Source of the DNA: Actinomycetota bacterium | Lineage (GTDB): Bacteria; Actinomycetota; CADDZG01; WHSQ01 | Direction: 5' to 3' | DNA length: 24,000 nucleotides | NCBI GenBank assembly: GCA_030446465.1 | Contig: JAUJNI010000003.1 | Coordinates: 61,543-85,542 of the forward strand | Shown here: one piece after another, positions 1,313 to 21,164 of the stretch | How the letters are laid out: the number at the start of each line of letters is the position of its first letter | Position numbering within the stretch: position 1 is the stretch's first letter | Made by a program: the position numbers and the translations under genes | The notes under the pieces: generated by a model | Databases searched by the model: none | What the model saw: the letters and a program-made list of their open reading frames with translations, nothing else | Told to the model about the DNA's origin: nothing

Positions 1313-2659
1313 CTAGAGGCCCCCGACGGTCATCTCGGAGACCAGAGTGGTCGATCCCCCGAAGGACCCACCAAAGGGGAGCCACCGCCGGTCGTCGGCG
1401 ACCGACACGATGCGCGACAGGATGACGAGCAGCGGGGCCGCGATCGTGACCTCCTTGACGGCCTGAGTGAGCTCGCCGTCTTCCGCCAGCCGCCCGGTGG
1501 CACCCACAGAGAAGTCTCCCGATACCGGATTGGCGCCCGAGTGCACTCCGTGGAAGTCCTGCACCACGAGCGCGCGGCCTGCTTGGCGCAACACCTCGTC
1601 TCTGCCCACGCCGGTGGACTCGAAGGCGAGGTTCGAGGCCGAGGGGCCGGGGACGGACTTGAACCCGCCGCGGGAGGCGTTACCTGTGGAGGTCTTGCCT
1701 TCCCGGCGAGCGCTCATCGTGTCGTAGAGAAAAGAATCCAGGATGCCCCCCCGGATGACTTCGGTCCGCTGCGTGGGGACGCCCTCGGCGTCCCAGGGGG
1801 CCGAGCCGGGCGCCCCCTCGATTCGCCCGTCGTCCACCAGCGTCAGGCCCGCAGCCACCTCATCGCCGAGCTTGCCTGCAAAGAGCGACCGTCCCTTCTG
1901 CACTGCTTCTGCAGTCAGGGCGCGGGCGAGGACGCCGAGGAACTGCCCCGCCACATAAGGCTCGAAGACAACCGGCATGCGGTTGCTCGGAATCTTGGTT
2001 GCACCGAGCACTCCAAGCGCTCGCTCGCACGCTTTCCTCGCGACGTCGCCTGGATCGAGTTGGTCGAGGCCCCGGCCTAAGGCGAACTCGAAGCCGACCT
2101 CCGTGTCGTCGCCCTCCGTAGCTATCGCGAGCGAGTAGCACCACGAGTCGGTCTGGCGATAGAGCCCCTCTATGCCCGTTGAGGTGGCTATCGCGACCTC
2201 GCTGCTCGAGTCGGCGTAGACCGCCTCCTCCACGGCTCGTATGCGTGAGTCGTACGCCCTGGTGAGCTCTTCGAGCTCGAGCACGAAGCCGGTCTTCTGC
2301 TCCGGGGTCACGCGCGTCTGCGACTCGTCGAAGAGCCCCGGCACCTCCGGCGGAGGCGATCCCGGCACGGCAAGACCGGCGGCCTCATCTGGGGTCGAGA
2401 AGGCGGCGTTCGAGCGAGCGTCGCCCACGATCAGGTCGATCCCTTCCGGCGTCAGGTCGGTGGTGAAGGCAAAGCCCGTGCGATGGCCGGTCACGACGCG
2501 GACACCGGCCCCCCTGGGCTCGGCGGAAGAGACCGACTCGATGTCGCCGAGATAGGCCTTCGCCTGGAAGGTACGGTCGTGAACCATGTAGGCCTCGATC
2601 TGCTCGTCGCCTTGCGCTCGTTCGCAGATAGATCGAGCCAGCTCGAGAAGCTCCGCCAT
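1313..2659 (-). CDS. pmbA: PmbA/TldE-family metalloprotease component
   Basis: 448 aa with typical TldE/PmbA-like sequence (GVRVVTGHRTGFAFT, C-terminal GANPVSGDFSVGATG). Its ATG at 2659 directly abuts the stop of the upstream TldD gene. Confidence 0.8.
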   Translation of the reverse strand: MAELLELARSICERAQGDEQIEAYMVHDRTFQAKAYLGDIESVSSAEPRGAGVRVVTGHRTGFAFTTDLTPEGIDLIVGDARSNAAFSTPDEAAGLAVPGSPPPEVPGLFDESQTRVTPEQKTGFVLELEELTRAYDSRIRAVEEAVYADSSSEVAIATSTGIEGLYRQTDSWCYSLAIATEGDDTEVGFEFALGRGLDQLDPGDVARKACERALGVLGATKIPSNRMPVVFEPYVAGQFLGVLARALTAEAVQKGRSLFAGKLGDEVAAGLTLVDDGRIEGAPGSAPWDAEGVPTQRTEVIRGGILDSFLYDTMSARREGKTSTGNASRGGFKSVPGPSASNLAFESTGVGRDEVLRQAGRALVVQDFHGVHSGANPVSGDFSVGATGRLAEDGELTQAVKEVTIAAPLLVILSRIVSVADDRRWLPFGGSFGGSTTLVSEMTVGGL

Positions 2660-4042
2660 CTACGCCTCCGTCCCGCCCACGGTCATCCGGCCCAGAAGGA
2701 CCGTCGCCATGCCGTTGGTGACGGGAGCGTGCTGGCCGTCCTTGCCGCACACTCCTTCTTTACGGTCGAAGTCGGACCCGACCGCCTCGATCACGCCCAG
2801 CACCTCGGGGCCGTTGCCGATCAAGTTGGCGCCCTTGATTGGGTATGCAAGCTCGCCTTTTTCGATCATGTAGGCCTCCGCCATGCCAAAGACAAAGTTG
2901 CCGGTGGCGGGATTGACCTCGCCGCCGGCGAAAGTGGCCGCGTAGACGCCCCGCTCGATTGACCTGATGATGTCCTCGGGGTCGTCCTGTCCCGGCTCGA
3001 GATCGGTGTTCGTCATACGAACGATGGGGAGGTGGGCGTAGGACTGCCGGCGGCCGTTGCCCGTCGGGGGGGCCTCGATCTTCCCGGCGGACCGCAGGTC
3101 GCTCAGGTGACCGATCAGCACGCCCTTGTCGAACAGCACGGTGCGTTGCGCGGGGGTGCCCTCGTCGTCGACCCCGAAGGACCCCCACGAGCCCGGTTTG
3201 GTGGCGTCGTCGACGATCGTCACGATGTCGGACCCGAAACGATCCCCACGTCTCTTTGCGTAGACGCTCGCCTCCTTTACCAACGTGTCGGCCTCGAGGC
3301 CGTGGCCACAGGCCTCGTGAATCAGGACTCCTCCGGTGCCGGGCGCGAGAACTACCGGGAACTCTCCTGCGGGCGACGGCTTCGCCTCCAGCATCCGCAG
3401 GGCCTTGGCCGCGGCCTTCGAACCGAGCTCTGCGGGCGGGAGCCGTTCAAAGAGCTCGAAGCCTCCGGAGTGACCCGGCGCTTCGAAGCCGGTTGCGATC
3501 TGCCCGTCCCTCCCGGCGACGACCTGCACCGCGAAACGAACGCGGGTGCGATCGTCCTCTGCACGGCGTCCGTCGGATGCAGCGATCAACACCCGTTGCC
3601 TGATATCGGCGTACGAAGAGATCACCTGACGGACCGCATCCCCTTTGATCCGGGCCGCGTGGTCGGCCTCGACGAGGGCCGCAACCTTGTCCCCGGCGCC
3701 CACATCCTCCGGGCGTACCTGCACGGCGGCGGTTGAGGAGGCTCCAACCATGCGCAGGTCCCTCGCCTCCACGGGCCCCTCGGACAACCCCGCCCGAGCC
3801 GACCGGGCGGCGTCCAGCAGCGCCTCCTGGGTGAGCAGATTGGTGTAGGCGTAGGAGGCCCTCTCGCCCGAGATCAGCCGGATGCCTGCCCCTCGGTCAC
3901 GGCCCGACGAAACGTCTTCCACTCTGGAGTCCTCGAGCCTCAGAGCAGTCGATCGGCGGTCCTCGACGAACAGCTCGGCAAGGTCCCCGCCGCGCCCGAG
4001 CGCCTCCGCCAGGACCCTCTTTATGACACCGTCGTCGAGCAT
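2660..4042 (-). CDS. tldD: TldD-family metalloprotease
   Basis: HEACGHGLE zinc-binding motif and GEVNPATGNFVFG C-terminal motif. I place the start at ATG 4042 (MLDDGVIKRVLAEAL...), giving about 460 aa. The 153 upstream codons of the 613-aa ORF look non-protein-like. Confidence 0.85.
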   Translation of the reverse strand: MLDDGVIKRVLAEALGRGGDLAELFVEDRRSTALRLEDSRVEDVSSGRDRGAGIRLISGERASYAYTNLLTQEALLDAARSARAGLSEGPVEARDLRMVGASSTAAVQVRPEDVGAGDKVAALVEADHAARIKGDAVRQVISSYADIRQRVLIAASDGRRAEDDRTRVRFAVQVVAGRDGQIATGFEAPGHSGGFELFERLPPAELGSKAAAKALRMLEAKPSPAGEFPVVLAPGTGGVLIHEACGHGLEADTLVKEASVYAKRRGDRFGSDIVTIVDDATKPGSWGSFGVDDEGTPAQRTVLFDKGVLIGHLSDLRSAGKIEAPPTGNGRRQSYAHLPIVRMTNTDLEPGQDDPEDIIRSIERGVYAATFAGGEVNPATGNFVFGMAEAYMIEKGELAYPIKGANLIGNGPEVLGVIEAVGSDFDRKEGVCGKDGQHAPVTNGMATVLLGRMTVGGTEA

Positions 4043-4315
4043 GGAAAGGGCAGGATACGGCCCGGCCCACTTACTGGGTTCGTGCGCTTGTGCGTGTCGA
4101 TATGAGCGATGTAGTCTCACGTCGGCACACCGGCCTACCCAGCCCCTCAGCCGCTGGCACTTACAAGGAGCCCACGCCTGACAAGCCAAGACGGAGCCAG
4201 CTTCACCAGCCAGCAGGTCGGCCGGCTCAACTCCATCCAGGAACGCCTCACCGAAGCCCGCCGGGAGCTCGACGCGCTCATCGGGGACGCGTACCTTCGA
4301 CCCAGGGCATCGGTC

Positions 4316-4507
4316 GTGCCGGTCCACTTCCTCGACCTCGCCTCCGCCGTCGAGAAGCTGAGGTGGGCTGAAAAGGAATGGAGAGAGCTCAACCAGCAGG
4401 TTCGGGAGGCCCGGAGGAGCCCGGGCGGCGACGGCGCCGTCGATATGCCGGCTCACGAGCAACCGCACGACCTCCTCAGGCTCGTGCCGGAGGCGCGCCA
4501 ACTCTAG
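4316..4507 (+). CDS. Hypothetical small protein (coiled-coil-like); true 5' end unresolved
   Basis: Strong third-position GC bias in this frame from about 4199 to the TAG at 4505-4507. The only canonical start in frame is GTG 4316. The frame is open back to 4115 with no ATG/GTG/TTG. Confidence 0.3.
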   Translation: MPVHFLDLASAVEKLRWAEKEWRELNQQVREARRSPGGDGAVDMPAHEQPHDLLRLVPEARQL

Positions 4508-5282: not shown

Positions 5283-7195
5283 ACTGCCTCTCTTTCGGTG
5301 ACCACATCTCCGCTTGCCAAGACGAGGCCATCCTCGCACCTCGTCTCGATCGCCCCGTCGGAGAACTGCTCGTGATACAGGGCCGCGTAAGCGCCATCCC
5401 TGGCAAGTAAGTCGGCATGGGAGCCCCGCTCGGTGATCTTTCCCTTGTCGACGAACAAGATCGTGTCCGCTGCAAGGATGGTCGACAGCCTGTGGGCGAT
5501 GGCGATGGTGGTCCGACCTTGGATCAGAGGAGACAACGCTTGCTGGACGAGACGTTCGGAGTGAGTGTCGAGCGCGCTGGTCGCCTCGTCGAGGATGAGG
5601 ATGTGCGGGTTCTTCAATATGACGCGCGCGATGGCGAGGCGCTGTTTCTCGCCGCCGGACATCTTGTAGCCGCGCTCTCCTACCGTGGTGTCTAAGCCCT
5701 CAGGCATCTCCACGATTCGGTCCCAGATGTAGGCCGCCCGGGCTGCGTCTTCGAGTTCCTCGTCGCTCGCCTCGGGATTCCCGTACCTGAGGTTCTCTCT
5801 GATCGTGGCGTTGAACAGATAGGTCTCCTGAGTCACCATCCCAATGATGTCGCCGAGGGACTCGAGCTTGATGTCCCTGACGTCAACGCCATCGACACGC
5901 ACGCTTCCTCGCGTGACGTCGTAGAGCCGAGGGACCAGGTAGGTGAGCGTCGTCTTGCCCGCGCCTGAAGGTCCCACCAGGGCGACCAGCTTGCCCGGCT
6001 CGACCTCGAAGTCGACGCCAGAGATAGTCCACACTCTTTCTTCCTCGGGACCGATATCCCGGCTTCGGTCGTACTTGAACCAGACGTTCTCGAACGAGAC
6101 CCGGCCCCTGACCTCTTGCGGCCTCAGCTCTATGGCCCCGTCGCGATCGACGATGTCTCGCTCGAGGTCGAGGTACTCGAAGATGCGATCGAACAACGCG
6201 AGCGCGGATTGCACCTCTACGGTCACGTTGAGAAGCTGTCCCATGGGGAAGAACAGCCGGCTCTGCAGGGTCGTGAATGCGACGATCGTCCCTACGATTC
6301 CCTCGGGCGCGCCGGCCCCTCCTCTCAAGAAGAGGTAGCCACCGACCAGATAGACAAATGCCGGGGTGATCGAGAAGAAGATTTGAATGAGTGAGAAGAA
6401 GCCTCGGCCCACCATCGTCCGGCGGACCTCCAGCTCGGAAAGCCTTTGGTTCTCGGCGCGGAACCTTCCGATCTCGTAGGGCTGTCTGCCGAACGCCTTT
6501 GACAACAGGATCCCCGACACGGACAGGGTCTCCTGCATGTGCGCGGTGAGATCGGCTAGCGACTCCTGCGTTTGTCCCGACACCTCTCGCCGGATCTTGC
6601 CGACCTTTCTGCTGATCAGCAGGAACACCGGGAGGATCCCGAGCGACAACACCGTAAGCTCCCAGCTCAGCACGAACATCACCACGACCGTCGAGATCAC
6701 CGTCGCGATGTTGGACACGATGCTCGACGCAGTGTCCGTAAGAACGCCTTGGACGCCGCCCACGTCGTTCGAGAGCCTCGACTGGATCTCGCCGGTGCGC
6801 GTGGAGGTGAAGAACTTCAGGGACATGTGCTGCAAGTGCGCGTAGAGCGCGTTGCGCAGGTCGCGCATGACGCTCTGCCCAACCCGGTTGTTGATGTAGG
6901 TCTGCCATAGCCCGAGAAGGCCGCTCACTATCGGCGTCGCGATCATCACGGCGACCACGATGAGAAGCAGGCGCAGCCTGTCGCTCTCGGGCCCTTCCCC
7001 CAGGATCACTTGGTTGAACACGACCTTGATCAGCAACGGGTTGATCAGGCCAAGGCCTGCGGTGACGAGGATCAACAGCGCAACAAGTCCGACCTGTGCC
7101 CTGTATGGGCGGAAGGTCGCGACGATGCGCGCGAAGGTGCCAGGCCTTGCCGGGTGCTCCGGGGTGGCCGGAGGCGTCAGCCTGTGAGGGCGCAA
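5279..7195 (-). CDS. ABC transporter, fused permease/ATP-binding exporter (MsbA/type I exporter-like)
   Basis: N-terminal six-helix-like TM domain. Walker [13 protein letters not shown] signature MSGGEKQR, Walker [14 protein letters not shown]-loop IAHRLST. The TTG start at 7195 is uncertain. Confidence 0.9.
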
Positions 7196-10329: not shown

Positions 10330-10458
10330 GGCCCCTCCTTCTTTGTCGTCGTGTGGCTTGTCCTCACCCCACTGCGTAAAGCTACAGGCTAGGCCCCTCG
10401 GCACACCTGCGGGGTCACCCACCAGCAACGCTCTCAGTAGGAACACGACAACAATCAG

Positions 10459-10531
10459 TGCCCTGGGCAGGATTCGAACCTGCGACACCCGGTTTAGGAA
10501 ACCGGTGCTCTCTCCCCTGAGCTACCAGGGC
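10459..10531 (-). tRNA. tRNA-Arg (anticodon CCT)
   Basis: The minus strand reads GCCCTGG TA GCTC AGGGGAGA GAGC A CCGGT TTCCTAA ACCGG GTGTC GCAGG TTCGAAT CCTGC CCAGGGC A. This is a full cloverleaf with a 7-bp acceptor stem, TTCGAAT T-loop and anticodon CCT. CCA is not encoded. Confidence 0.9.
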
Positions 10532-10565
10532 CAGGGCGGGACTTGGCCAAATGGTGGGACAAAAC
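10531..10565. repeat. Direct repeat copy A (35 bp) beginning at the 5' end of tRNA-Arg
   Basis: ccagggcgggacttggccaaatggtGggacaaaac matches 16508-16542 with one mismatch. It contains the TTGGCCAA palindrome. Confidence 0.85.
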
Positions 10566-10699
10566 TACTCGCGGACCAGGCTCAAGACAGCTTTCCCACG
10601 TTAGAAGCCAGCTAAGGGCGACCGTGAGCCGGTCAATCGGGGTGTGACGCCGCGTCCCACCAACGTCGAACTGTCTCAGCCTCTCAATAGGTTGCTCTT

Positions 10700-10990
10700 A
10701 TGACTCCGGATGAGGAACTTGAGAAGGTGCTCGCCGCCTTCGTTCGGCGACGTCCGAAAGACGTGAGATTGTCGCCGCTCGAGGTGCTTGAGATCGTCAC
10801 CCGGGACGCCTTCAGGTGTCGGATCTGCGGCAGGTCCGTGGATGCCCAACCACGCCGTGTCATTCGTCTCGAGGGAGACCAGGCGGGCAGCGGAGCCGAA
10901 CAGATGATTACGGTTTGCGACGGGTGTCGACACCGGCTACTGATGGAGCGCTTCAGCCACAGGACTGAAGGGAGTTCGGATGACGAGTGA
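10700..10990 (+). CDS. Hypothetical zinc-ribbon protein (two CxxC pairs; degenerate HNH-like layout)
   Basis: 96-aa ORF with CRIC ... CDGC. No clear SD. First ORF inside the repeat-bounded segment. Confidence 0.4.
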   Translation: MTPDEELEKVLAAFVRRRPKDVRLSPLEVLEIVTRDAFRCRICGRSVDAQPRRVIRLEGDQAGSGAEQMITVCDGCRHRLLMERFSHRTEGSSDDE

Positions 10991-11152
10991 CTTGCAACTC
11001 ACGGCGGCGTCGATCGTTGATGCGTTCGGCGCCCAGGGTGGTCCGTCGGCGAACGTGGTTCCTTCACGATAGAGACCCACGTCCGGGACGTTCAACGCCT
11101 TACCCCGTGTCCCCGGGCGCGGGGCAGTAACGCCGCTCAAGATGACCGCTGG

Positions 11153-11386
11153 TTAAGGGAGTTCCTCTTCCGCTGTGGTTAGGACCATGTGTAGGAGCCG
11201 ACGGCGACTCTCGCGATATTCATCACCTAGGTTGACGTGTCCGCCGTTCCGGGGCCAGAGGTCGCCATCGCTTGACAGCGCGAAGACGAGGTCTCGGCGG
11301 TCGTAGTCGTAGTTCCCGACGAAGAGGATCTTCGCTGCAGCGAACTTAGAACCCTGGGAACGGACCCACTCCGCCGCGGCAGGCAT
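11153..11386 (-). CDS. Hypothetical protein
   Basis: 77-aa ORF with no recognisable motif. Upstream in-frame sequence looks non-coding. Confidence 0.25.
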   Translation of the reverse strand: MPAAAEWVRSQGSKFAAAKILFVGNYDYDRRDLVFALSSDGDLWPRNGGHVNLGDEYRESRRRLLHMVLTTAEEELP

Positions 11387-11593
11387 CTTGTCGAGCCCGT
11401 CGGGCGCCTCACCGCGCTCGACCTCGCTCCAGTCGTTCCACGCCGTCCACCGAGGTCGCGAGGCGCAGGTAGAGCTCGGCGTCCGAGTAGACCGAGCGCC
11501 TCGGACGCCTTCGCGTTCTGGCGGGACCAGTTCGATGGACGAGCGGCGAGTAACGCTTCTGGTATGGCGGCGGCGCGCTGCGCTCTGCGCCCC

Positions 11594-12625
11594 CTATCCG
11601 TGCCGGGCTCGGAGTCGTCCCTGCTTCGCCGCCATTCGCACCGGTACGAGGAGGAAGAGCGCGCCGAGCAGGATGACTGCCGCAGCCGGCAATGCGCCAC
11701 CGATCGGCACCCCTGGCGGCTTTCCGCTGATCACGGAGCGCTCGCCGACGATGAATGCGAACACGCCTGCGAAGTAGAGAAGCTCCCTCACGACCGCTTG
11801 TGCGGCACCCCTCTGGTTTCGCACCGCAAATTTGTAGCCTCCTCGCACGACGACGAGGAAGACGGCGGCCGCGACCCATAGCGCGAGTCCGTCGCCGTTG
11901 CCTTTGAATCCGGTGCGGAATCCGTTCGCCCCGAGCACGAGATTGTTCAGCGCGCCGTACATCATCACGGCAAGGCCGCCGACGAGCAGGAGCTCCGTCG
12001 CGAGTGGGCCCAGGAAACGGAACGCGGCGCTGCCCCGTCGATCTCCGCGGACCGCGGCCTTCAGCGCCCCGCGCAGCACGACCAGCACGAGCATGCCGGT
12101 GATCGTCAGACCGAGGAAGCTGACCCAGTTCCACTTCGGCGTCATCAGGCGTTCGTTGCCGATCTGTCCGAGCCCGATCCCGAGCAAGATCGTGCCGACG
12201 GCGAGAATCACGCCGTCCGGGACGAAGTAGCTCACCCGCTCGGCTCTCCGCGCCTCCGGCGTGAGTGCGAAAGCGATCCCGCCGAGCACCAAGCCGATCG
12301 GGACGGTCACGAACTGAGCGACCGCGATCGAGTATCCGACACCGCCTTCGTGGAACTCCGTGTTCGTGACGGCGAGATAGACGAGCGAGGCCAGCAGCGT
12401 GAGCCCTCCCGCCGTCATCGCTGCATGCGCGCCTCTCGCGAGCAGCAACGTCCCACCAATTGTCGCCAGCGCTCCGGCCACGGCCTCTGCGGCTCGCGGA
12501 CCCGCATCGACGGGAGCGATGAACGCCATCGCCGCCATCGCTCCCCCGAGCGCGAGGCCGCCGAAGCCGAGCGCTTTCGCACTGCCCATCACTGATCCCG
12601 TGAACGTGGTCTCGGCCGTGGTCAT
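11594..12625 (-). CDS. Polytopic integral membrane protein of unknown family (about 10 predicted TM segments)
   Basis: 343 aa, Gly/Ala/Leu-rich hydrophobic segments throughout. ATG at 12625 preceded by AGGAG with a 5-nt spacer. The Arg-rich 420-aa ORF in another frame of the same strand is a shadow ORF. Confidence 0.75.
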   Translation of the reverse strand: MTTAETTFTGSVMGSAKALGFGGLALGGAMAAMAFIAPVDAGPRAAEAVAGALATIGGTLLLARGAHAAMTAGGLTLLASLVYLAVTNTEFHEGGVGYSIAVAQFVTVPIGLVLGGIAFALTPEARRAERVSYFVPDGVILAVGTILLGIGLGQIGNERLMTPKWNWVSFLGLTITGMLVLVVLRGALKAAVRGDRRGSAAFRFLGPLATELLLVGGLAVMMYGALNNLVLGANGFRTGFKGNGDGLALWVAAAVFLVVVRGGYKFAVRNQRGAAQAVVRELLYFAGVFAFIVGERSVISGKPPGVPIGGALPAAAVILLGALFLLVPVRMAAKQGRLRARHG

Positions 12626-12848
12626 TCAGGCTCCTGTCATAGGTGATAATGTCCTCTCCCGAGATTAGCATACCTAAAAAAAATATTAGACATACCTAAA
12701 AGAGGCCAAGGAGGGTGAAGCCGCGTTCGCATGGCGAGAGCGTCTTCATCACCCGTGCACATGAGGGGCAACCATCTTGAAGAGCGATCCGGTACCGCGA
12801 GATCCCGAAACTCATACGATTGAATCGCCACCTACAGCGTCCGTATGA
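12626..12848. promoter_or_regulatory. Divergent intergenic/promoter region with an AT-rich tandem direct repeat
   Basis: The only strongly AT-rich stretch I noticed in the window. ATTAGCATACCTAAAA (12664-12679) and ATTAGACATACCTAAAA (12685-12701) are spaced about 21 bp apart, between divergently oriented genes. Confidence 0.5.
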
Positions 12849-13250
12849 GTGATGAGAGTCAGAGAGCAGCTCGCGCCTCGTCCCCCTGACGGAGAGAATA
12901 CGCGCGCTCCCGCCACGGTTCGCCGCGGTGCTGCAAGGGGTATAGCCGCCGGACTCGTAGCGATCGGGTGCTGCGTTGGCCCGGTTGTCGCGGCACTCCT
13001 GGGGTTGATGAGTGCGGCAGCTGCGGCCGATCTAGCTAACGATCTTTACGCCGACTGGGGATGGGCATTCAAGGTCGCCGGCGCGGTCTTCGGTGGCGCT
13101 GCGTTGCTCGCGGCGCGCAGGCACGCAAGAGCGTGCAGGCTTGAAGATCGGTCGATCATTCCATTTGCCCTCGTCTTGGTAGCGACTGGAACCGTGACGT
13201 ATCTCGTGCTCTACGCGGCCACAACGTCGCTCGGACGGGCAGCAACGTGA
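12849..13250 (+). CDS. MerT-like three-TM membrane protein with a vicinal Cys pair in TM1
   Basis: LVAIGCCVGPVVAALLG resembles the MerT TM1 motif (..CCLGPLVL..). There are two more TM segments with a Cys (HARAC) in the loop between them. The start is uncertain (GTG 12849 or ATG 12852). Confidence 0.55.
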   Translation: MMRVREQLAPRPPDGENTRAPATVRRGAARGIAAGLVAIGCCVGPVVAALLGLMSAAAAADLANDLYADWGWAFKVAGAVFGGAALLAARRHARACRLEDRSIIPFALVLVATGTVTYLVLYAATTSLGRAAT

Positions 13251-13420
13251 TGGTGGAACTACTCCTCCCTCGGACGGACGGCGGCGTGGCCGCCCAGATC
13301 GGGCTTACGTTCCTGTTGCTCGGGCCCCTGCCGTATCTGCTGATCAGGGGCAGCCACAAAGATGCCACCTGGGTCACCGGTGGCTTCGGCGCGATATGGG
13401 CAGTGTTCACTGCTCTTTAG
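13250..13420 (+). CDS. 56-aa two-TM small membrane protein (not in the supplied ORF track)
   Basis: ATG 13250 overlaps the upstream TGA (TGATG). The peptide is MVELLLPRTDGGVAAQIGLTFLLLGPLPYLLIRGSHKDATWVTGGFGAIWAVFTAL. High third-position GC; TAG at 13418-13420. Confidence 0.45.
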   Translation: MVELLLPRTDGGVAAQIGLTFLLLGPLPYLLIRGSHKDATWVTGGFGAIWAVFTAL

Positions 13421-13480
13421 GACGCTTCATTGACGATCGGCGAATCGCACGAGGTCAACGGCTTGAACAAGGAGAAGCGC

Positions 13481-14911
13481 ATGCAGGAGGCGGGACCTAA
13501 GTCCGACGTGAAGCTTGGAACCACGCATTCTCTCTGCCCGCGCTGTAAGCGCGTGGTCCCCGCTGACATCGTCGAACGCGACGGTCGCATCGTCATGATC
13601 AAGGAGTGCCCCAAGCACGGGGTCTCAGAAGCACTCACCTGCTCGGACGCCGAGTGGTATCGGTGGAGCCGTCGCTTCCAGCGTCCGGGCAGACCTCCGG
13701 TGCACCGAGCCACAGAGACCCACCTCGGCTGCCCGTATGATTGCGGCTTCTGCCCCGAGCACGAGCAACATGCGTGCGTGACGCTTTTCGAGATCACGCA
13801 GGCATGCAATCTGGAATGTCCTGCTTGCTTCGCCGCAAGCCCGCACGGTCGACATTCCACGATGGAGGAGATCGACTCGATGCTCGATGCCGTAACGCTT
13901 GCGGAGGGCGGTCCCGCGGACGTGGTGATGCTCTCGGGTGGAGAACCAACTATCCACCCGCAGTTCGAGGAGATCGTCGCGCACGTGGCAGGGTCCGGAC
14001 GCGTTAAGCACCTCATGGTGAACTCGAACGGGATCCGTTTCTCACGCGATCCGAAGCTGTGCGACTTGCTCGCTGCGAATCAGGTCAAGGTGTACCTACA
14101 GTTCGACGGCCTGGAAAGTGGATCGCTCGAGATGTTGCGTGGGAGTGATCTCGTTGCGACGAAGCTAGAGGCACTCGACCAGCTCGGCAAGGCCGGAGTC
14201 ACCGTTGTCTTGGTAGCGACGATAGCGAAAGGCGTGAACGATCACGAGATCGGAGACATCGTCGATCTCGGCGTTAAACATCCCGCGGTTCGCGCCGTGA
14301 GCTTCCAACCCCAGTTCGGCGAGGGCCGCTGGGTCCCGTTCGATCCGTTAAATCGCACGACAGTGACCGATGTGATCGCCGCGATCGCCGAGCAGACGGG
14401 GGGCACCTTCGAGACGACGGATTTCGTCCCGATCCCCTGTTGCGACCCCATCTGTACAGCGGCTACGTACGCGTGGATACAAGACGGCGACGTCACACCA
14501 CTGCCTCGGATCGTCGATGTCGAGCACTACCTCGACTACATCAAAGATTCCGCTTCTCCCGCGGTTAACCCCGCGCTCGAGGACGATTTCGTGGAGATGC
14601 GAGGGACGCTCGAAACCCTTTACTCGAAATCGAACCCGGCAGGATCCGAGGGCCAGAGTCATGCGTTTACGTGTGCCTGCGGCCCCCTGGTGGACGTAGC
14701 AAACGCTGATCTCTCGATGCGCCTGTTCTCGATCACCATCGAAGCGTTCATGGACCGACATAATTTCGACGTGTCACGAGCGCGTAAGTGCTGTATCCAG
14801 GAGGCGCTCCCCGACGGACGGATCATTCCGTTCTGCGTGTACAACACCCTGCATCGCTTTGCCCCCGGCAAACACGCCCGTCCCCCCGTCGAACAGACAA
14901 CGAACCTGTGA
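13481..14911 (+). CDS. Radical SAM enzyme with N-terminal Cys knuckle and additional Cys clusters (MJ0619 / GDGT-MAS-like architecture)
   Basis: CNLECPAC (CxxxCxxC) at 13805-13828. Upstream are CPRC...CPKHG and CPYDCGFCPEHEQHAC; C-terminally IPCCDPIC, FTCAC and KCCIQEALPDGRIIPFCVYN. ATG 13481 is preceded by AAGGAG with a 6-nt spacer, so I prefer it to TTG 13430. Confidence 0.85.
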   Translation: MQEAGPKSDVKLGTTHSLCPRCKRVVPADIVERDGRIVMIKECPKHGVSEALTCSDAEWYRWSRRFQRPGRPPVHRATETHLGCPYDCGFCPEHEQHACVTLFEITQACNLECPACFAASPHGRHSTMEEIDSMLDAVTLAEGGPADVVMLSGGEPTIHPQFEEIVAHVAGSGRVKHLMVNSNGIRFSRDPKLCDLLAANQVKVYLQFDGLESGSLEMLRGSDLVATKLEALDQLGKAGVTVVLVATIAKGVNDHEIGDIVDLGVKHPAVRAVSFQPQFGEGRWVPFDPLNRTTVTDVIAAIAEQTGGTFETTDFVPIPCCDPICTAATYAWIQDGDVTPLPRIVDVEHYLDYIKDSASPAVNPALEDDFVEMRGTLETLYSKSNPAGSEGQSHAFTCACGPLVDVANADLSMRLFSITIEAFMDRHNFDVSRARKCCIQEALPDGRIIPFCVYNTLHRFAPGKHARPPVEQTTNL

Positions 14912-15723
14912 TCGAGACGGATACGGTCACGAATGAGATCAAGGCGTCGTGTTGTACGACGTGGGAACATCCTGCAGCTCGTCTCCTATTAGGCGACCAT
15001 CTTCACCCCGGAGGCCGCGCTCTTACGGCGGCGACCGTCGATAGCGTCGGAGCAGTTGCCGGCGATGTGGTCCTCGATGTCGGATGCGGAACCGGATCCG
15101 CTGTTCGTCTCATGCAGGAGAGAGGTATCCGGGCTGTAGGCATAGACCTATCGGAGCGCGCGACAAGCGCGGCTTTCGATGCGGGCGCACGCCAACTCGT
15201 TGTCGCCGATGGCGAGCGGCTCCCGTTCTCCAGCACATCCATGGACGGCTCTACGGTGGAGTGCGTCACGTCGCTGTTCACTGACAAGCAGCGGGCGTTC
15301 GGCGAACTCTACCGAGTCCTCAAACCAGGAGGCCGTCTGGCTATGTCCGACGTCGCTCTGGAGAAGCCGTTGCCAACCCTCCTTGAAGGAGCCGCCGCCA
15401 GGTCCTGCTGCATCGGCGGAGCCCTTTCCGTTCGAGGTTACGAGCGCGCCTTATCCGATGCCGGATTCGAGGTGCTGAGGGCGGTCGACCACTCCGACGC
15501 TCTGATCGCGACGATAGAGCAGGTCAGGCGCAGGCTCTCGCTCTTCGAGGTCACCGCCGTCGCAAGTGGTTTCGACCTCTCGGGTCTCGGCGTCTCGTCC
15601 GAAGCTCTAGAGACCGGCCGTACGGTCGCCGCAATGCTGGTCGAGGAAGTGCGGAATGGCGTCCTCGGGTACACCTCTATCACCGCCCGCAAGCCGGGGC
15701 CGGGTCCGTCACGAGACGAGTAG
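14908..15723 (+). CDS. Class I SAM-dependent methyltransferase with two vicinal Cys pairs (ArsM-like features)
   Basis: GTG 14908 overlaps the radical SAM stop (GTGA). VLDVGCGTG SAM motif; CC at 14950-14955 followed by LLLGDHLHPGG; second CC in SCCIGGAL (15406-15411), resembling the ECLGGAL region of As(III) methyltransferases. Confidence 0.85.
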   Translation: MIETDTVTNEIKASCCTTWEHPAARLLLGDHLHPGGRALTAATVDSVGAVAGDVVLDVGCGTGSAVRLMQERGIRAVGIDLSERATSAAFDAGARQLVVADGERLPFSSTSMDGSTVECVTSLFTDKQRAFGELYRVLKPGGRLAMSDVALEKPLPTLLEGAAARSCCIGGALSVRGYERALSDAGFEVLRAVDHSDALIATIEQVRRRLSLFEVTAVASGFDLSGLGVSSEALETGRTVAAMLVEEVRNGVLGYTSITARKPGPGPSRDE

Positions 15724-15731
15724 GTCACGAG

Positions 15732-16286
15732 ATGTTGTTGAAGCAGCCCGCTCCGGAAGTTGGGTTCACCACCCTGGGCGGTGAAGTCATCGAACTCCGT
15801 TCGCTGCGTGGGCGCCGGTCGTCCTGACGTTCCTCCACTATATCGGTTGACTGTTCTGCGAACACCATCTCGTGAAGATGGAAAAGAGGAAGGATCGGTT
15901 CGCAGCGGCGGATGCAAGAGTCCTGGTCGTCTCGTTCGAATCGCCCCACAGGTTGAGTACGCTTCAACAGCGACTGAACCTCTCGTTCACCCTCGTCGTA
16001 GACGAGGGGTCGCCCGGCGTACAGAGCGTTTGGGCTAGGACGCGCTGATTTCGCCAGGACATATCCCGACCCCCGGGTCGCCTGGGGCTACGCCAAGATT
16101 ATCGCCGGCGGCGACCTACCCGATCTGCATCGTGGTCAGGACCGCCGTCAACTAGGGGGTGACTTCGTTCTAGACGCTGACGGGGACATCGCGTTCGCTC
16201 ACCCCGAACGGGGGCCGGAGGATCGAGCTCACGTCGCCGCTCTGACGCGCAGCAGTGCCGCAGGCTTAGGATCCCGTGGCCCGTAG
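15732..16286 (+). pseudogene. Prx-like2 / AhpC-TSA-family redoxin, disrupted (two frameshifts, TGA at the first Cys of CxxC)
   Basis: Three frame segments join into a redoxin-like sequence. The first is MLLKQPAPEVGFTTLGGEVIELRSLRG (frame of 15732). The second is PVVLTFLHYIG*LFCEHHLVKM...LNLSFTLVVDE (frame of 15812, TGA at 15848-15850). The third is RPAYRAFGLGRADF...QLGGDFVLDADGDIAFAH (frame of 16002, TAG 16284-16286). Confidence 0.7.
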
Positions 16287-16417
16287 GGCGCCGAAGCTTC
16301 GAATCGCTATCTTGCGAACGAGGGACCCCCGAACAAGTCGGCGCAATCGCGGCTGAAAGGGGCCTCTCGAGTTTAGCCGACCTACACCTTCCGACCGCCA
16401 GACGAGCGTCGTCGCCT

Positions 16418-16574
16418 GGGTCGTTACCAAAAGTGCCTTCTCGCGTTACCCGGCCGTGTCCCAAGGCACCGCTGACCAGCACGGTCAAGGGTTTTGTCCG
16501 CGTCCGACCAGGGCGGGACTTGGCCAAATGGTAGGACAAAACCTCAAACGAATATCCATTGGATGCCGTCGCGC
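16418..16574. repeat. Repeat copy B (about 157 bp unit; contains the 35-bp core at 16508-16542)
   Basis: 16418-16514 matches 20444-20540 with a single mismatch (97 nt). Homology continues with indels to 16574 / 20592. Confidence 0.9.
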
Positions 16575-16780
16575 TGCCCCGCAAGCCTGTGATGGTGAGG
16601 AGATTGCTCAATGGACTCGAGGTAGTCCTTCAGCGTGAAGCCACACGCTCTTCCTACCGCAAACGCGAGGATGACAACACTCAACAAACACGGATAGCAA
16701 CTGGGGGTCGTCCGAGCAAGAGGGTTCCGGTGACGGATCGGCCACACCGCCCATGGCCCGTTACTACGGGACTCTCGCTC

Positions 16781-17056
16781 TCATGCCATCCGGCACTGGA
16801 CCTCGGCCTTAACGGCGTCCTCGGGTCGGTCCGTCTCGATCCGGAACGACAAATCGTAGTGCCGCGCCTTCGGGTTGCGCAGTTCTCGAGGCGGCCAGAA
16901 TGTCGGTCGGATCTGCTGGAAGCCGCGGCCTAGCGCCTCGTCTCCCTCCGCGAACACGACGGCGTGGCATTCGGCTTCGGCGTTGATCATCGGCTCGCCT
17001 ATAAACCGCAACGGGCTCGCGACCTGCACAGCGTCGCTCCCGACCGGTTCGAGCAC
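16781..17056 (-). CDS. Hypothetical protein
   Basis: 91-aa ORF with moderately protein-like composition and no motif recognised. Confidence 0.35.
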   Translation of the reverse strand: MLEPVGSDAVQVASPLRFIGEPMINAEAECHAVVFAEGDEALGRGFQQIRPTFWPPRELRNPKARHYDLSFRIETDRPEDAVKAEVQCRMA

Positions 17057-17125
17057 GATCTCTGTGGGCCGCCACCCCGGTTCGCTGAATTGCCGGCACG
17101 CGATCTTTACGTCGGTCGCGGAGCC

Positions 17126-17689
17126 TTAAAACTCTGAGCCGTGAATGCCACCGGCGCGTTCCCAGTCCTCGTCCGGCGCTGCGATGTACTCAGGGTGGCC
17201 TTCGTAGATGAGTGAGCCAGCATCGTTGTAGGCACGCGTCCGGCAACGGCTCCCGGGCCCCTCATAGGGGATCGGCCCTACCCACAGGCCCGCACCACGA
17301 ACCACCGTTCCCTTGTCACCCGCCCGGGCGGTGGAGAACTCCCAGTGGGGGACTTCCTGGGTATCGGGGAGCGAGAACGCCTTCAGCCCGGAAATAGTAT
17401 CCGCGTCGAAATTCCCATCGAGCGCCACAACGTTCCATCTGCCGCCGCGTAAGGCGACGGTGATCCATGCATCTGTCTCCCCGGAGACTGACTTGCACGT
17501 TTCGTACGTCTCCCCCTTACGGTTGGTGAAGATCCCGCACCTCGAGCGACCGAACCCGACTCGCCACGTAGCGTCGTCAACCGGCTTCACTTCTTCGCTA
17601 AAGGAGTAGAAGTCGCCCAAAGGGTCGAAGAGGCCGGCGGTGGCCAGCGCCCGGACCGTGAACACCTCCGCTCGCTCCCCTGGAGTCAT
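17126..17689 (-). CDS. Hypothetical protein
   Basis: Protein-like sequence from MTPGERAEVFTV... (ATG 17689), about 187 aa. The ORF is open further upstream to 17842, but that part is Arg/Ala/Ser-rich. No motif recognised. Confidence 0.5.
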   Translation of the reverse strand: MTPGERAEVFTVRALATAGLFDPLGDFYSFSEEVKPVDDATWRVGFGRSRCGIFTNRKGETYETCKSVSGETDAWITVALRGGRWNVVALDGNFDADTISGLKAFSLPDTQEVPHWEFSTARAGDKGTVVRGAGLWVGPIPYEGPGSRCRTRAYNDAGSLIYEGHPEYIAAPDEDWERAGGIHGSEF

Positions 17690-17896
17690 GCGATCAGATG
17701 GCACATCCGTCTCCTCGCGGTGCGCGGGGGGCGTGGCGTCTCCGTCACGAGTCACGAGGAGGGCATGGGAAGCACGCGCTGACAAAGGATGTAACGCCGG
17801 TCGAAAACTCCGGCTCGCGTCCTCCTCAGCACACCTCCACATCCTCCTCCTTCCTGAGACCTTGCCGCGAGCACTTGAGATCCGTGCGGCATGCAG

Positions 17897-18823
17897 TCAT
17901 GTCAGGACATCGGAGGCCGAGCAGGCAAGCGCTTGTCGCAACAGCTCGTAGGACGAGGGTTCGTCTCCTCGCAGAAGTCGCTCCGAACCGGTGATCACCA
18001 CGACGGCGTCCAGGGAGGGTGCGACGGCGAGGAGCTGACCGGCGTAGCCCGCCGCGAACCACGCTGGGGGGTCAGCATCACCGTCGCACCACCACATGAA
18101 GCCGTAGGGACGGTGCTCCGGTGCGCCACCATCGCTCGCGGGCTTCCAGGCCATGCCCATGAACCGGTCCGCCACCAGTGTTTCGGTCTTAGCCTGTCCC
18201 CGCGCCAGCCACAACCGCCCGAACCTCGCGAGATTGACAGGACTGATCCGGAAATGGCCGAAGCCGTACGGGATGCCCTCGGGATCCGTGGGCCACGTCC
18301 ACCCTGAGATGTCGAGTGGATGAAACAGCCTCGATCGCGCGTACTCGACCACCGGTTGCGGCAGGATGCGCTGCAACACCGCGGCTGTGAGGTGTGCGCA
18401 TCGGTTGTCGTATTTGAACGCGCTCCCGGGCGCTCGCTCTGCAGGAAGCGACAAGATGTCGTCGACCCAGGACGATTCCCGCTTCATGACCCGGTCGATG
18501 TCCATGAACCCGTCGGCCGCGATGCTCGCCGTCATCGTCAGAAGATGGCGGACCGTAAGGGCGGGATGGCGCTCGCCTGCCGCCGGGAGAATCTCGGCGA
18601 CGCGCTCATCAATGCCTTCTAAGTACCCATCGTCGACGACGGCTCCGATGAGCGTCGTGACGATTGGCTTGGTGAGAGAGTAGGTGTCGAGGGGACGATG
18701 GATGTCCTCGCCATGAAACGATCGGACGTGCGTCTCGGGGCCATCGACCGCAAGGTGGTCGATGTGGGCCCAGCACGGGTCTGTTGAGATGCGGTGCTCT
18801 AGCTCCTCAAAAAGCCGGCGCAT
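17897..18823 (-). CDS. Beta-lactamase-fold serine hydrolase (class C / esterase-like)
   Basis: SLTK (SxxK) nucleophile motif near residue 50, YDN (YxN) motif, 308 aa. Confidence 0.8.
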   Translation of the reverse strand: MRRLFEELEHRISTDPCWAHIDHLAVDGPETHVRSFHGEDIHRPLDTYSLTKPIVTTLIGAVVDDGYLEGIDERVAEILPAAGERHPALTVRHLLTMTASIAADGFMDIDRVMKRESSWVDDILSLPAERAPGSAFKYDNRCAHLTAAVLQRILPQPVVEYARSRLFHPLDISGWTWPTDPEGIPYGFGHFRISPVNLARFGRLWLARGQAKTETLVADRFMGMAWKPASDGGAPEHRPYGFMWWCDGDADPPAWFAAGYAGQLLAVAPSLDAVVVITGSERLLRGDEPSSYELLRQALACSASDVLT

Positions 18824-19074
18824 TGGTTCTCTGCCGCTCCTCGCATCTGACGACGGATCGTAACTCTGACGGAACTGTGTAAAGCATCACGTGGCGCCGG
18901 AATGTCAAGCTTCTTAGCAACTTCTGATGTGCGCTTAAGCCCCCCATCTCAAGTTGTCTTGCTCTGATGCATGTAGACACGTCGATCGTGTCTGCTTCGT
19001 CGGCCTCTTGTCCGGCCGGTAACGCTCCGTGGAATGTTGTGGCTGAGCCTCCGCTTGGTCGTCAGAGGAGTCGC

Positions 19075-20109
19075 TCAACGTTCGCTGGCGAGAAGGAGCC
19101 AGACGAGGATCCGTGGGACGCCAACGGGCGTTGGGTGAGCGATGCCCTCGTCCTCCGTCCTTGAGGCGTCAGGGGTCCCGTCCCACCACTCGAGCACCCG
19201 GAGCGCCCGGAGGGTGTTCCAGCGGCTCGCCGTCCCCTCGCCGCCCTCGACGTCGAAGTGGACGCGACCCGGATGGATGCGGTCGAGCAGCCACCGGCCG
19301 TCGGGCTGCCGCTTCGACCGGACGACCGCCACCGCCTCCGCCATCCGGGGATCCGGGTCCGCGCCCGACCGTCGGAAGTAGTCGAGCGCGCGCAGCACGT
19401 CGTAGTGCCAGTAATACGGGAACGCAAACTCGAGATACGACGGGTCGGCGACCTCCCCAGTGCTCTTGCGGCGGAACAGGCCGCGCTCGAGCAGGTACTC
19501 CTCACCGCCGCGCCGGGCCGTGCGCACCTCCGCGGACCCGCCGGTCGCGCGCTCGAACTCGAGCAGGCCGTCGAGCACGTTGATCGTCGTGTCGAAGGAG
19601 GACCGCACCGATCCGTTCTCGGCCTCGCAGTTCCAGCCGCCGTCCTCGAGCCGCTCGTCGAGGATCCGCTCGACGAGCGCCGCAACGTCCACCCCGAAGT
19701 ACGCCCCTGTCTCGATCGTCCTGCCGTTGATGCACGGCTCGACCTCGCCGTCGAAGTACCGCTGCCCGGCGTGCTCCCAGCGCCCGTTCTCCGCGACGAG
19801 CGCGATCGCCCGGCGGGCGGACTCCGACGCCGGGTCGAGCCCGAGGAGTTGCAGCGTCTGCAGCGTGTGCATCGTGGCCGTCCAGGGCTGCCCCGGTTCA
19901 CCGCCGGTGTAGGACGCCGGGAAGCAGGCGCCGCCCGCCCAGAGCCCGTCGGGATCCTCGAGCGCGAGGAGGCGCGCGCCCCAGCCGTCGTGCTCCACCC
20001 GGGCTCGCTCGGCGACGTCGTCGGGCGCCGCGTTCGTGAGATAGCGCAGGACCTGCCAGCGGATGGCGGGGTCGCCGTCGAGCAGCCAGTCGATCACGCT
20101 CATCGTCAC
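19075..20109 (-). CDS. Prenyltransferase / squalene-cyclase-repeat (alpha-alpha toroid) protein
   Basis: Recurrent DG-W repeat motifs (DPDGLWAGG, ENGRWEH, EDGGWNCE, QPDGRWLL). 344 aa. The start is GTG 20109 or ATG 20103. Very high GC produces long shadow ORFs on both strands. Confidence 0.6.
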   Translation of the reverse strand: MTMSVIDWLLDGDPAIRWQVLRYLTNAAPDDVAERARVEHDGWGARLLALEDPDGLWAGGACFPASYTGGEPGQPWTATMHTLQTLQLLGLDPASESARRAIALVAENGRWEHAGQRYFDGEVEPCINGRTIETGAYFGVDVAALVERILDERLEDGGWNCEAENGSVRSSFDTTINVLDGLLEFERATGGSAEVRTARRGGEEYLLERGLFRRKSTGEVADPSYLEFAFPYYWHYDVLRALDYFRRSGADPDPRMAEAVAVVRSKRQPDGRWLLDRIHPGRVHFDVEGGEGTASRWNTLRALRVLEWWDGTPDASRTEDEGIAHPTPVGVPRILVWLLLASER

Positions 20110-20443
20110 AGGCTACCCCCGGCCGCCGACGACCCGAAAGGGAGTCGGCGATATAGGTCGGGCGGCGGTGTCGGCCCGAGTTCAGTCTGGCCTCACCATC
20201 CCTTCGCAGCTGGGCGCCGTTTGAGCATCTGGTGGTGCAATGCCGCCATCATCGTCAGGCATGGCTCCTTGACTTCAAATAGACGTCCCACCCGAGACCG
20301 ACCGTGGTCGATCGACTGGATCCCCTCACGCCACCCCACGACCACCTTCCCCCTGGTCCGGCCCTATTCCAGGTAGGCGATCGCAGCGCGGATTCGGCGG
20401 ACGGTAGGTCCGGTCGATCACCGGGCCCGCCTGCGGGGTTCGG

Positions 20444-20592
20444 GGGTCGTTACCAAAAGTGCCTTCTCGCGTTACCCGGCCGTGTCCCAAGGGACCGCTG
20501 ACCAGCACGGTCAAGGGTTTTGTCCGCGTCCGACCAGGGCCACACTTGGCCAAATGTAGGACAAGGCGAATGTCCATTGGATTCCGTCGCGC
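20444..20592. repeat. Repeat copy C (about 149 bp unit, diverged core)
   Basis: See copy B. In the core, accagggcca matches the tRNA-proximal end of copy A, and acttggccaaatg and taggacaa are also shared. Confidence 0.9.
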
Positions 20593-20681
20593 GCAGGACA
20601 CTAGGCCTCGTTGTGCTGAAGCGTGATCTGATCGGCCTCCGCTGCCTAAGGTCTCCCGAACACGGCCAATACAATCCTTCA

Positions 20682-21164
20682 ATGCGCCGCCTGCTCAGCC
20701 TCTTCTTGCTCTCTGCGCTCCTCGCTGCCGGCTGCAGTGATGAAAGCAGTCCGTCCAAGTCACCCGAAGGCGGGGGCAAGATGGAAACAACGGAGCACGG
20801 CACCCACATCATCGCCTCGGTCGACCAAGAGACCGGCCTGCGCCTCGAGATCCAGGACAACAGCCTCTTCTTGGAGTTGCCGGAAAGCCCAACCGGTAAG
20901 GCCGCTGAGCTGCGGGGGACTGGACTTGGGGGTGCGTGTGACGTCTCCTCGGATGCTCCCTTCACCATGCCCGAGCTGTTCCCCATCTACTGGCGGGAGG
21001 AATACAACGACTGGGGCAGTGCCGTGACGCGCGGGCTGCCGGTGCCCGAGGACAGCGAACCAACCCTGGCCGAGTTCGTCACCGAGTGCCGGATCTACGC
21101 CCCACCCGAAGGCAGCGACGAGGTTCGACTCGACAATCTGGTCACCACGATCGACGTTCGCTAA
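20682..21164 (+). CDS. Putative lipoprotein
   Basis: MRRLLSLFLLSALLAAGCSDE is a signal peptide with a LAAGC lipobox. The mature protein has no recognisable motif. I prefer ATG 20682 to the upstream ORF start, which lies inside repeat C. Confidence 0.7.
   Translation: MRRLLSLFLLSALLAAGCSDESSPSKSPEGGGKMETTEHGTHIIASVDQETGLRLEIQDNSLFLELPESPTGKAAELRGTGLGGACDVSSDAPFTMPELFPIYWREEYNDWGSAVTRGLPVPEDSEPTLAEFVTECRIYAPPEGSDEVRLDNLVTTIDVR

Follow-up and report, generated by a model that had tools for sequence, protein, structure and literature searches.

Three co-oriented repeats at the 5' end of a tRNA-Arg(CCT) gene as possible junctions of two tandem integrated elements in an uncultured actinobacterium

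The window analysed here is a stretch of 24,000 nucleotides of an Actinomycetota bacterium (GCA_030446465.1, contig JAUJNI010000003.1), in which a sequence located at the 5' end of a tRNA-Arg(CCT) gene recurs twice, thereby delimiting two segments of accessory genes. These three repeats, named A, B and C outward from the tRNA, may well be attachment (att) junctions left by two related integrative elements inserted in tandem at the 5' end of this gene, a reading to which we give about an even chance of being right. The observation that carries it is the structure of the middle copy, which shares one half with the first repeat and the other half with the third one, with a switch point standing exactly at the boundary of the tRNA.

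Repeat array upstream of tRNA-Arg(CCT)

The tRNA-Arg(CCT) gene is the only tRNA gene of the window according to both ARAGORN and Rfam, and is located at one end of the array (Table 1). A repeat search of the window yielded a family of three direct repeats in a single orientation, at 10531-10565 (A), 16508-16542 (B) and 20534-20568 (C). B is identical to A at 34/35 positions (97%), whereas C reaches 66% without gaps and 27/35 with a gap of 1 nt. By chance, 24 kb of the window's base composition would yield about 5e-10 repeats of 34/35, and the invariant 13-mer ACTTGGCCAAATG occurs exactly 3 times for 0.01 expected. An earlier note made on the letters of this DNA had described the 35-bp repeat with its single mismatch, the common orientation of all copies, and a diverged third copy in which the stretch accagggcca even matches the tRNA-proximal bases of A. 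All of this holds, except that C starts at 20534 instead of 20533 in the register of the search tool.

The 8-mer ACCAGGGC, which on the + strand is the reverse complement of nucleotides 1-8 of tRNA-Arg(CCT), is found in all three copies. The homology of A to B and C consequently does not begin at the first tRNA nucleotide, as the earlier note had it for a repeat of 35 bp; the 35 bp are real, but B and C belong to a unit of about 150 nt and the homology runs from the upstream region through tRNA nucleotides 1-8, ending at tRNA position 8. It is broken in A by a CAGGGC that is a tandem duplicate of the six bases before it, and the spacer between ACCAGGGC and ACTTGGCCAAATG is variable, A having CAGGGCGGG, B GGG and C CAC. 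That this homology spans both the upstream region and the beginning of the tRNA speaks for a unit tied to the tRNA locus rather than for an independent repeat family.

Both repeat search and alignment show B and C to be copies of the same discrete unit, extending well beyond the 35-nt repeat, with sharp edges outside which the sequences are unrelated. The unit has no terminal inverted repeats, as its ends read GGGTCGTTACC... and ...CCGTCGCGC, and its flanks do not display any target-site duplication. Its core holds the 8-bp palindrome TTGGCCAA, and copy B contains the heptamer CGTTACC at 16422-16428 and again at 16444-16450 (22 nt apart). A perfect 9-bp inverted repeat of B, GTTTTGTCC (16491-16499) and GGACAAAAC (16534-16542) with a 34-nt spacer, keeps 6 bp in C and only its right arm in A; it carries little weight, having been noticed post hoc and with a chance expectation of about 0.03 such repeats. 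The 3' side of the tRNA is clean, with no 3' tRNA-Arg fragment elsewhere in the window at up to 3 mismatches.

Table 1. Positions, in the window, of the tRNA gene, of the three repeat copies with their parts, and of the two segments with their genes.
Feature	Position	Strand	Remarks
tRNA-Arg(CCT)	10458-10531	-	ARAGORN; Rfam RF00005, 69.6 bits; intact, anchors the repeat array
Copy A, attL-like	10524-10565	+	ACCAGGGC (tRNA nt 1-8) at 10524-10531; CAGGGC at 10532-10537; GGGACTTGGCCAAATGGTGGGACAAAAC at 10538-10565
Copy B, attP-like	16418-16574	+	Full unit of 157 nt
B, long arm	16418-16506	+	
B, ACCAGGGC	16507-16514	+	
B, core GGGACTTGGCCAAATGGTAGGACAAAAC	16515-16542	+	
B, short arm	16543-16574	+	
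Copy C, attR-like	20444-20592	+	Unit of 149 nt
C, long arm	20444-20532	+	
C, ACCAGGGC	20533-20540	+	
C, CAC ACTTGGCCAAATG TAGGACAAGGC	20541-20567	+	
C, short arm	20568-20592	+	
Segment 1	10566-16417		5.85 kb; no recombinase
Zn-ribbon/HNH-like protein, 96 aa	10700-10990	+	Segment 1
Open reading frame (ORF), 77 aa	11152-11385	-	Segment 1
Membrane protein, 343 aa	11594-12625	-	Segment 1
Cys-rich membrane protein, 133 aa	12849-13250	+	Segment 1; weak MerC-like match
TrsS/Tes-like radical SAM enzyme	13430-14911	+	Segment 1; E 1e-98, under the family cut-off; N-terminal Zn ribbon
DVU_1556-family methyltransferase	14788-15723	+	Segment 1; 158.8 bits, cut-off 155
AhpC/TSA-type peroxiredoxin pseudogene, frameshifted	~15851-16283	+	PF00578 3e-6 and PF13911 9e-5, in two different frames
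Segment 2	16575-20443		3.87 kb; no recombinase
ORF, 82-91 aa	16781-17056	-	Segment 2
Protein of 238 aa, no function assigned	17126-17842	-	Segment 2
Beta-lactamase-family serine hydrolase	17897-18823	-	Segment 2
73% GC gene, probably 312 aa	19075-20109	-	Segment 2; no family; background ~63% GC

The chimeric middle copy

The left 97 nt of B, including ACCAGGGC, show a single mismatch to C (96/97, 99%), while the 28 nt following ACCAGGGC match A at 27 positions. Over the right-hand 60 nt, 7 substitutions and 2 indels separate C from B, and the contrast between left and right divergence gives a Fisher p of 0.003 for substitutions and of 0.0004 when indels are counted. B is thus a chimera, with a switch point exactly at ACCAGGGC, i.e., at the tRNA boundary. 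Outside the 35-nt core, the short arm of B is again like that of C (23/26), whereas A is unrelated.

The same contrast bears on the proposal of an ordinary local duplication, according to which illegitimate or homologous recombination made two further copies of part of the tRNA upstream region while a variable region was being rearranged, without any mobile element and without function. The region is indeed highly plastic, as synteny with all relatives ends at the start of a neighbouring oxidoreductase gene and a 4.56-kb indel without flanking repeat separates sister strains, and no recombinase is present. Nevertheless, uniform decay cannot leave one side of the 8-mer 99% identical while the opposite side falls to about 85% and carries indels, three co-oriented and sharp-edged copies, each at a segment border, are left unexplained, and the two segments do not share any sequence. 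This explanation is quite unlikely.

A model of successive integrations and its difficulties

In the tandem-element reading, two elements would have been inserted successively, presumably by a site-specific recombinase, at a site taking in nucleotides 1-8 of tRNA-Arg(CCT) together with about 35 nt upstream. Outward from the tRNA, A would join the tRNA to the left end of an element, B would bring together element 1, by its right end, and element 2, by its left end, hence its attP look, and C would connect the right end of element 2 with an older upstream region of the tRNA that was displaced. Seen in the sense of the tRNA, C would consist of native upstream region, core and element arm, B of arm, core and arm, and A of arm, core and tRNA. 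Copy A can be read as the tRNA side joined to an element-type right half, which makes it attL-like, and copy C as an element long arm followed by a diverged, possibly native, tRNA-upstream half, which makes it attR-like. A tandem array of this kind predicts the series U-O-P', P-O-P' and P-O-tRNA, which the chimeric B fits exactly.

Insertion on the 5' side would oblige the incoming DNA to replace the 5' leader and the promoter region of the tRNA. If an element has to supply both, the likeness of its ends to the tRNA upstream region would be explained, the core then probably carrying the tRNA promoter. Recombination between these sites would be expected to leave recognizable products, namely ...GAGCTACCAGGGC-GGGACTTGGCCAAATGGTAGGACAAAAC-CTCAAACG after an A x B deletion, ...GAGCTACCAGGGC-CACACTTGGCCAAATGTAGGACAAGGCG after an A x C deletion, and long arm-GACCAGGGC-GGGACTTGGCCAAATGGTGGGACAAAAC-TACTCG at the junction of a segment 1 circle. 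The successive insertion of two elements accounts for the co-orientation of the copies, the inclusion of tRNA nucleotides 1-8, the sharp edges of the unit and, above all, the chimeric nature of B.

Several observations weigh against it. A scan with Pfam, NCBIfam and PHROG of all plausible ORFs and intergenic frames detected no integrase, resolvase, transposase or excisionase, either in the segments or elsewhere in the window, and about 7 kb beyond its right end, taken from the sister strain, were equally negative; the cognate recombinase for which the earlier note advised a search was not encountered in this range. No attP-bearing phage, plasmid or viral contig emerged either, as the exact core pattern has no match in IMG/VR and the B unit has none by blastn in phage and plasmid collections. 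The count of copies covers about 36 kb of the organism's own genome, and base composition shows no break at any of the three copies, except for one gene. The variable spacer of 3-9 nt falls within the putative att core. The simplest model also wants the outer flank of A to be like that of B, yet the similarity between A and B stops after 35 nt, so that an extra assumption is needed, either different left arms or a later rearrangement beside A. Lastly, neither an empty site nor a one-segment variant appears among the contigs of left-flank orthologues or the genomes of the same gene order, the flank to the right of C is poorly conserved too, and relatives carry classical att remnants on the 3' side of the orthologous tRNA.

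As neither segment encodes a recombinase, the elements would be either decayed islands or integrase-less elements using a recombinase from elsewhere, in the manner of cis-mobilizable elements (CIMEs). The earlier note had proposed tandem islands bounded by att-like repeats: the tRNA-anchored and co-oriented sites, to which the chimeric B and a hotspot in relatives can be added, speak for this proposal, while the lack of a recombinase and of an empty site, together with the doubt that C is a boundary, leaves it incomplete.

Two candidate traces of recombination genes were rejected. The small ORFs by A do not qualify as excisionases, since the product of 96 aa has only weak HNH/IcmJ matches and that of 77 aa is weakly chaperone-like, and the supposed integrase remnant in the pseudogene region is the frameshifted AhpC/TSA gene.

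Assembly support and contig ends

The source of the sequence is a metagenome-assembled genome (MAG) of an uncultured Actinomycetota, and two assemblies end exactly at 10531, which raises the question of an assembly or binning artefact. Such an origin of the triple repeat is extremely improbable, as two other sequencing runs gave independent contigs, L012 and L013, in which junction A is identical, and B and C lie together inside a 241-kb contig of GCA_030447735.1, an independent assembly 99.75% identical to the window.

The two contigs ending at 10531, the first tRNA nucleotide, are GCA contig JAUJOG010000006 and Logan contig L003 (SRR24765285), both from one sample. A and B share only 25 exact nt, fewer than the assumed assembler k-mer length of k = 31, so the A/B repeat itself should not break the assembly graph. 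These ends may be explained by a population variant diverging at 10532, either devoid of the CAGGGC duplication or resulting from A x B recombination. By comparison, the end of contig L018 at 16485 is fully explained by the 47-nt exact identity between B and C.

The same ends would take on another meaning if the segments were live integrase-less cassettes, bounded by an attP-like unit of about 130 nt and inserted serially, at the extreme 5' end of tRNA-Arg(CCT), by a recombinase encoded elsewhere. Every insertion would then swap the tRNA promoter and leader for an element-borne copy, as in the pdif modules and the integrative mobile elements exploiting Xer (IMEX) presented below, with the tRNA promoter as the anchor, and recombination still under way in the population would account for the contigs of one sample that end at 10531. 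This stronger variant is improbable, with only a small chance of being correct.

Dispersed repeats or regulatory modules

The B/C unit is discrete, non-coding, endowed with hairpins and 96% identical between B and C, which recalls genome-wide intergenic families of the repetitive extragenic palindromic (REP) or miniature inverted-repeat transposable element (MITE) type; A would then be a partial copy, and homologous recombination or gene conversion would have made the mosaic. No recombinase is found nearby, the copy number is established over about 36 kb only, and the contig ends of two assemblies at 10531 are inexplicable by the A/B repeat itself, all of which would suit such a family. However, in these 36 kb of the organism's own sequence only three copies were detected, all within 10 kb, co-oriented and anchored on the tRNA, with no fourth copy within about 7 kb to the right of the window (sister-strain sequence). 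The homology takes in tRNA nucleotides 1-8, the mosaic has its switch point at the tRNA boundary, and the unit lacks the terminal inverted repeats and target-site duplications of a mobile family. The exact core pattern has a single chance match, in Aliidiomarina, in 596 Gb of GTDB species-representative genomes, and another one, inside a gene, in JGI metagenomes. From the roughly 36 kb covered, a dispersed family seems unlikely. A core-like sequence in contig L009 (7844-7880) was dismissed as due to chance, 30/200 shuffles scoring equally well.

A further proposal sees the repeats as a duplicated promoter/leader module of tRNA-Arg that would now drive or regulate two other transcripts, be it a small RNA (sRNA) starting from the long arm or the mRNA of the 312-aa gene that follows C; in a variant, the region could serve as an operator for the divergent genes of the + strand. 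The core stands where the promoter and leader of the tRNA should be, TANNNT-type hexamers (TACCAT, TACATT) are found in B and C about 19-25 nt upstream of the GCCCTGG start, every copy is intergenic with a gene start within about 100-450 nt, and the core holds the 8-bp palindrome given above. Conversely, promoter prediction gives nothing of the sigma-70 type for the three copies, no Rfam match is obtained at E<=10 (16300-16700), and folding is no better than that of shuffles on either strand (z = -0.84 and +0.37). The lone difference between the long arms of B and C breaks the predicted stem without compensation, an identity of 97-99% over 35-97 nt is far above the needs of a shared operator, and no intact minus-strand gene lies downstream of B. 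The chimeric pattern also remains without explanation, although a regulatory role would be compatible with att sites, as an element inserted there must bring a promoter. Taken alone, this module is decidedly unlikely.

A structured RNA in the B/C unit was also rejected, Rfam, at its gathering cut-offs, recognizing only the tRNA in the window. Promoter and terminator scans at A, B and C revealed one weak terminator-like hairpin on the + strand, common to B and C and within shuffle expectation. ORFs crossing the unit at 16099-16611 and 20326-20682 were discarded as arginine-rich wrong-frame artefacts not called by gene callers.

Content of the two segments

The two cargo segments announced at about 6 and 4 kb measure 5.85 and 3.87 kb, and the accessory look attributed to their genes is borne out by a radical SAM/methyltransferase operon, an AhpC/TSA pseudogene, a beta-lactamase-family hydrolase and a gene with 73% GC. 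The enclosed genes are accessory in character, and some of the cargo is accessory or foreign. In segment 1, the AhpC/TSA pseudogene directly adjoins the long arm of copy B.

The gene with 73% GC stands apart in segment 2. It has no match in Pfam, NCBIfam, PHROG or PDB and no viral relatives, but thousands of homologues at 85-92% identity, typically of 312 aa, are found in soil metagenomes and Actinomycetes MAGs, including one contig whose organism is named 'Actinomycetes bacterium'. As the core oxidoreductase flanking the locus reaches at most 84% identity to its nearest relative, this gene is more conserved than core genes, which points to either a recent horizontal acquisition or an extreme conservation under constraint. 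With the pseudogene and the strain-specific 4.56-kb indel, it makes the cargo look acquired.

Two neighbouring gene groups can be mentioned in passing. The genes at 11594-15723 form a Cys-rich operon and, as a set, resemble an uncharacterised TrsS/DVU_155x gene neighbourhood. Further left, at 1313-4501 of the minus strand, lie two neighbouring paralogues of the TldD/PmbA metallopeptidase family, with ORFs of 448 and 613 aa; they are kept in all relatives and are ordinary.

The locus in the sister strain and in relatives

The only genomes sharing this gene order are 99.7% identical to the window, essentially the same strain, and carry the same repeats, so that the empty site or single-segment strain for which the earlier note advised a comparison did not appear. 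One of them, the sister strain GCA_030447735.1, differs by a 4561-bp insertion at 17748/17749 (L004 5918-10478), inside the 238-aa ORF of the window. The extra DNA encodes an extracytoplasmic function (ECF) sigma factor, an RHS/abhydrolase protein and an abhydrolase, and its junctions show neither flanking direct repeat nor microhomology. Since Logan contigs of SRR24765286 end at the 17748/17749 junction, both variants may coexist in that sample. The extra DNA also contains a near-perfect direct repeat of 294 nt (L019 3233-3524 and 6457-6749), with copies 3.2 kb apart linking two abhydrolase genes.

More distant relatives, at 70-84% amino-acid identity, are syntenic to the left of the oxidoreductase and hold unrelated content where the window has its segments. 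The empty site was sought on the contigs carrying orthologues of the left flank (L008, L009, L011, L014 and L016); because synteny stops at the oxidoreductase start, it cannot be defined there. On the other side, the aldo-keto reductase of the right flank has matches at 97%, then at 71%, with no orthologues at 72-96% identity, so C is not demonstrably the edge of the variable region.

These relatives nevertheless bring information on the tRNA itself. In L009, a 100% identical 3' tRNA fragment of 44 nt, starting from the anticodon loop, stands by Phage_integrase fragments and a tRNA-Gly-like gene (5339-6558). In L014 (8230-8389), a 23-nt repeat of the tRNA 3' end is located 60 nt downstream of the gene, and in L011 (1-3860), 3.8 kb of variable genes, including a ribbon-helix-helix (RHH) antitoxin and a sigma factor, separate the tRNA from the oxidoreductase. 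These signatures indicate that tRNA-Arg(CCT) is an integration hotspot in the relatives. The contig L008, from an 82%-identical relative, ends (2-253) in a C-terminus that resembles, by eye, an IS481-like transposase, 250 nt upstream of the oxidoreductase; judged by eye, it may be another sign of a mobile-DNA hotspot at this position.

Comparison with known systems

The location of the repeat on the 5' side had been presented as unusual, which overstates the case. In the Islander database, 159 of 3919 islands are associated with a 5' fragment of the tRNA gene (tDNA), and 125 tandem arrays are listed (PMC4383910), while tRNA-Cys and tRNA-Leu serve pelagiphages as integration sites at their 5' ends, with an overlapping att core, and receive their 5' part from the phage (bioRxiv 10.1101/410191). 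As in these islands and phages, the tRNA of the window is intact at one end, co-oriented copies of its 5' end are found upstream, and the arrangement is in tandem; the incoming DNA is likewise proposed here to restore the 5' part of the tRNA. With respect to the displaced tDNA fragment used by Islander, tRNA nucleotides 1-8 with 28-35 nt of upstream identity recur upstream at B and C, but 8 nt is far below typical fragments. In contrast to Islander islands, the repeat of the window holds only these 8 nt, the shared block being mostly upstream DNA, and neither segment has the integrase gene that Islander requires, so that the locus would not be filed as a standard tDNA island. It is probably, and most simply, a decayed or trans-dependent relative of tDNA islands.

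CIMEs keep attL and attR sites, have lost the integration genes and take part in tandem accretion, as described for elements related to ICESt1/ICESt3 of Streptococcus thermophilus, tandem accretion being also known for Streptomyces pathogenicity islands (PMC5704250). The window shares with CIMEs the att-like repeats flanking both segments, the absence of integration and transfer genes, and the tandem organization with an attP-like site in between, provided that its repeats act as functional att sites. On the other hand, known CIMEs lie at the 3' ends of target genes and adjoin, or can be traced to, integrase-bearing integrative and conjugative elements (ICEs) or integrative and mobilizable elements (IMEs), whereas no such partner is seen here.

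Among actinomycetes, the phage VWB, in tRNA-Arg(AGG), and the actinomycete ICEs (AICEs) of the pSAM2 type are inserted at tRNA 3' ends. They share with the locus the host phylum and the tRNA isoacceptor, and the relatives L009 and L014 show this classical 3'-side signature; the window differs by its clean tRNA 3' side and by repeats standing on the 5' side.

Recombinases acting in trans are also known to move modules that lack an integrase, such as the IMEX elements at dif and the pdif modules of Acinetobacter plasmids. By analogy, the segments would be comparable to them as discrete, recombinase-less cargo modules of 4-6 kb in tandem, bounded by short conserved sites. The likeness concerns the layout of the modules; IMEX and pdif modules are bounded by dif-like sites that bind XerC/XerD, and the present locus is at a tRNA 5' end instead of dif.

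Significance

Both 5'-side tDNA islands and integrase-less tandem elements are already known, and the locus would alter their current understanding only if a recombinase in trans proved to be moving the elements actively. It would also be a test case for island-finding software, by which it would be missed, as such programs usually insist on an integrase together with a long 3' tDNA fragment. If the tandem-element reading is true, the locus offers a clean case of the minority class of 5'-side tRNA islands, in an uncultured soil actinobacterium and in a decayed, integrase-less tandem state.

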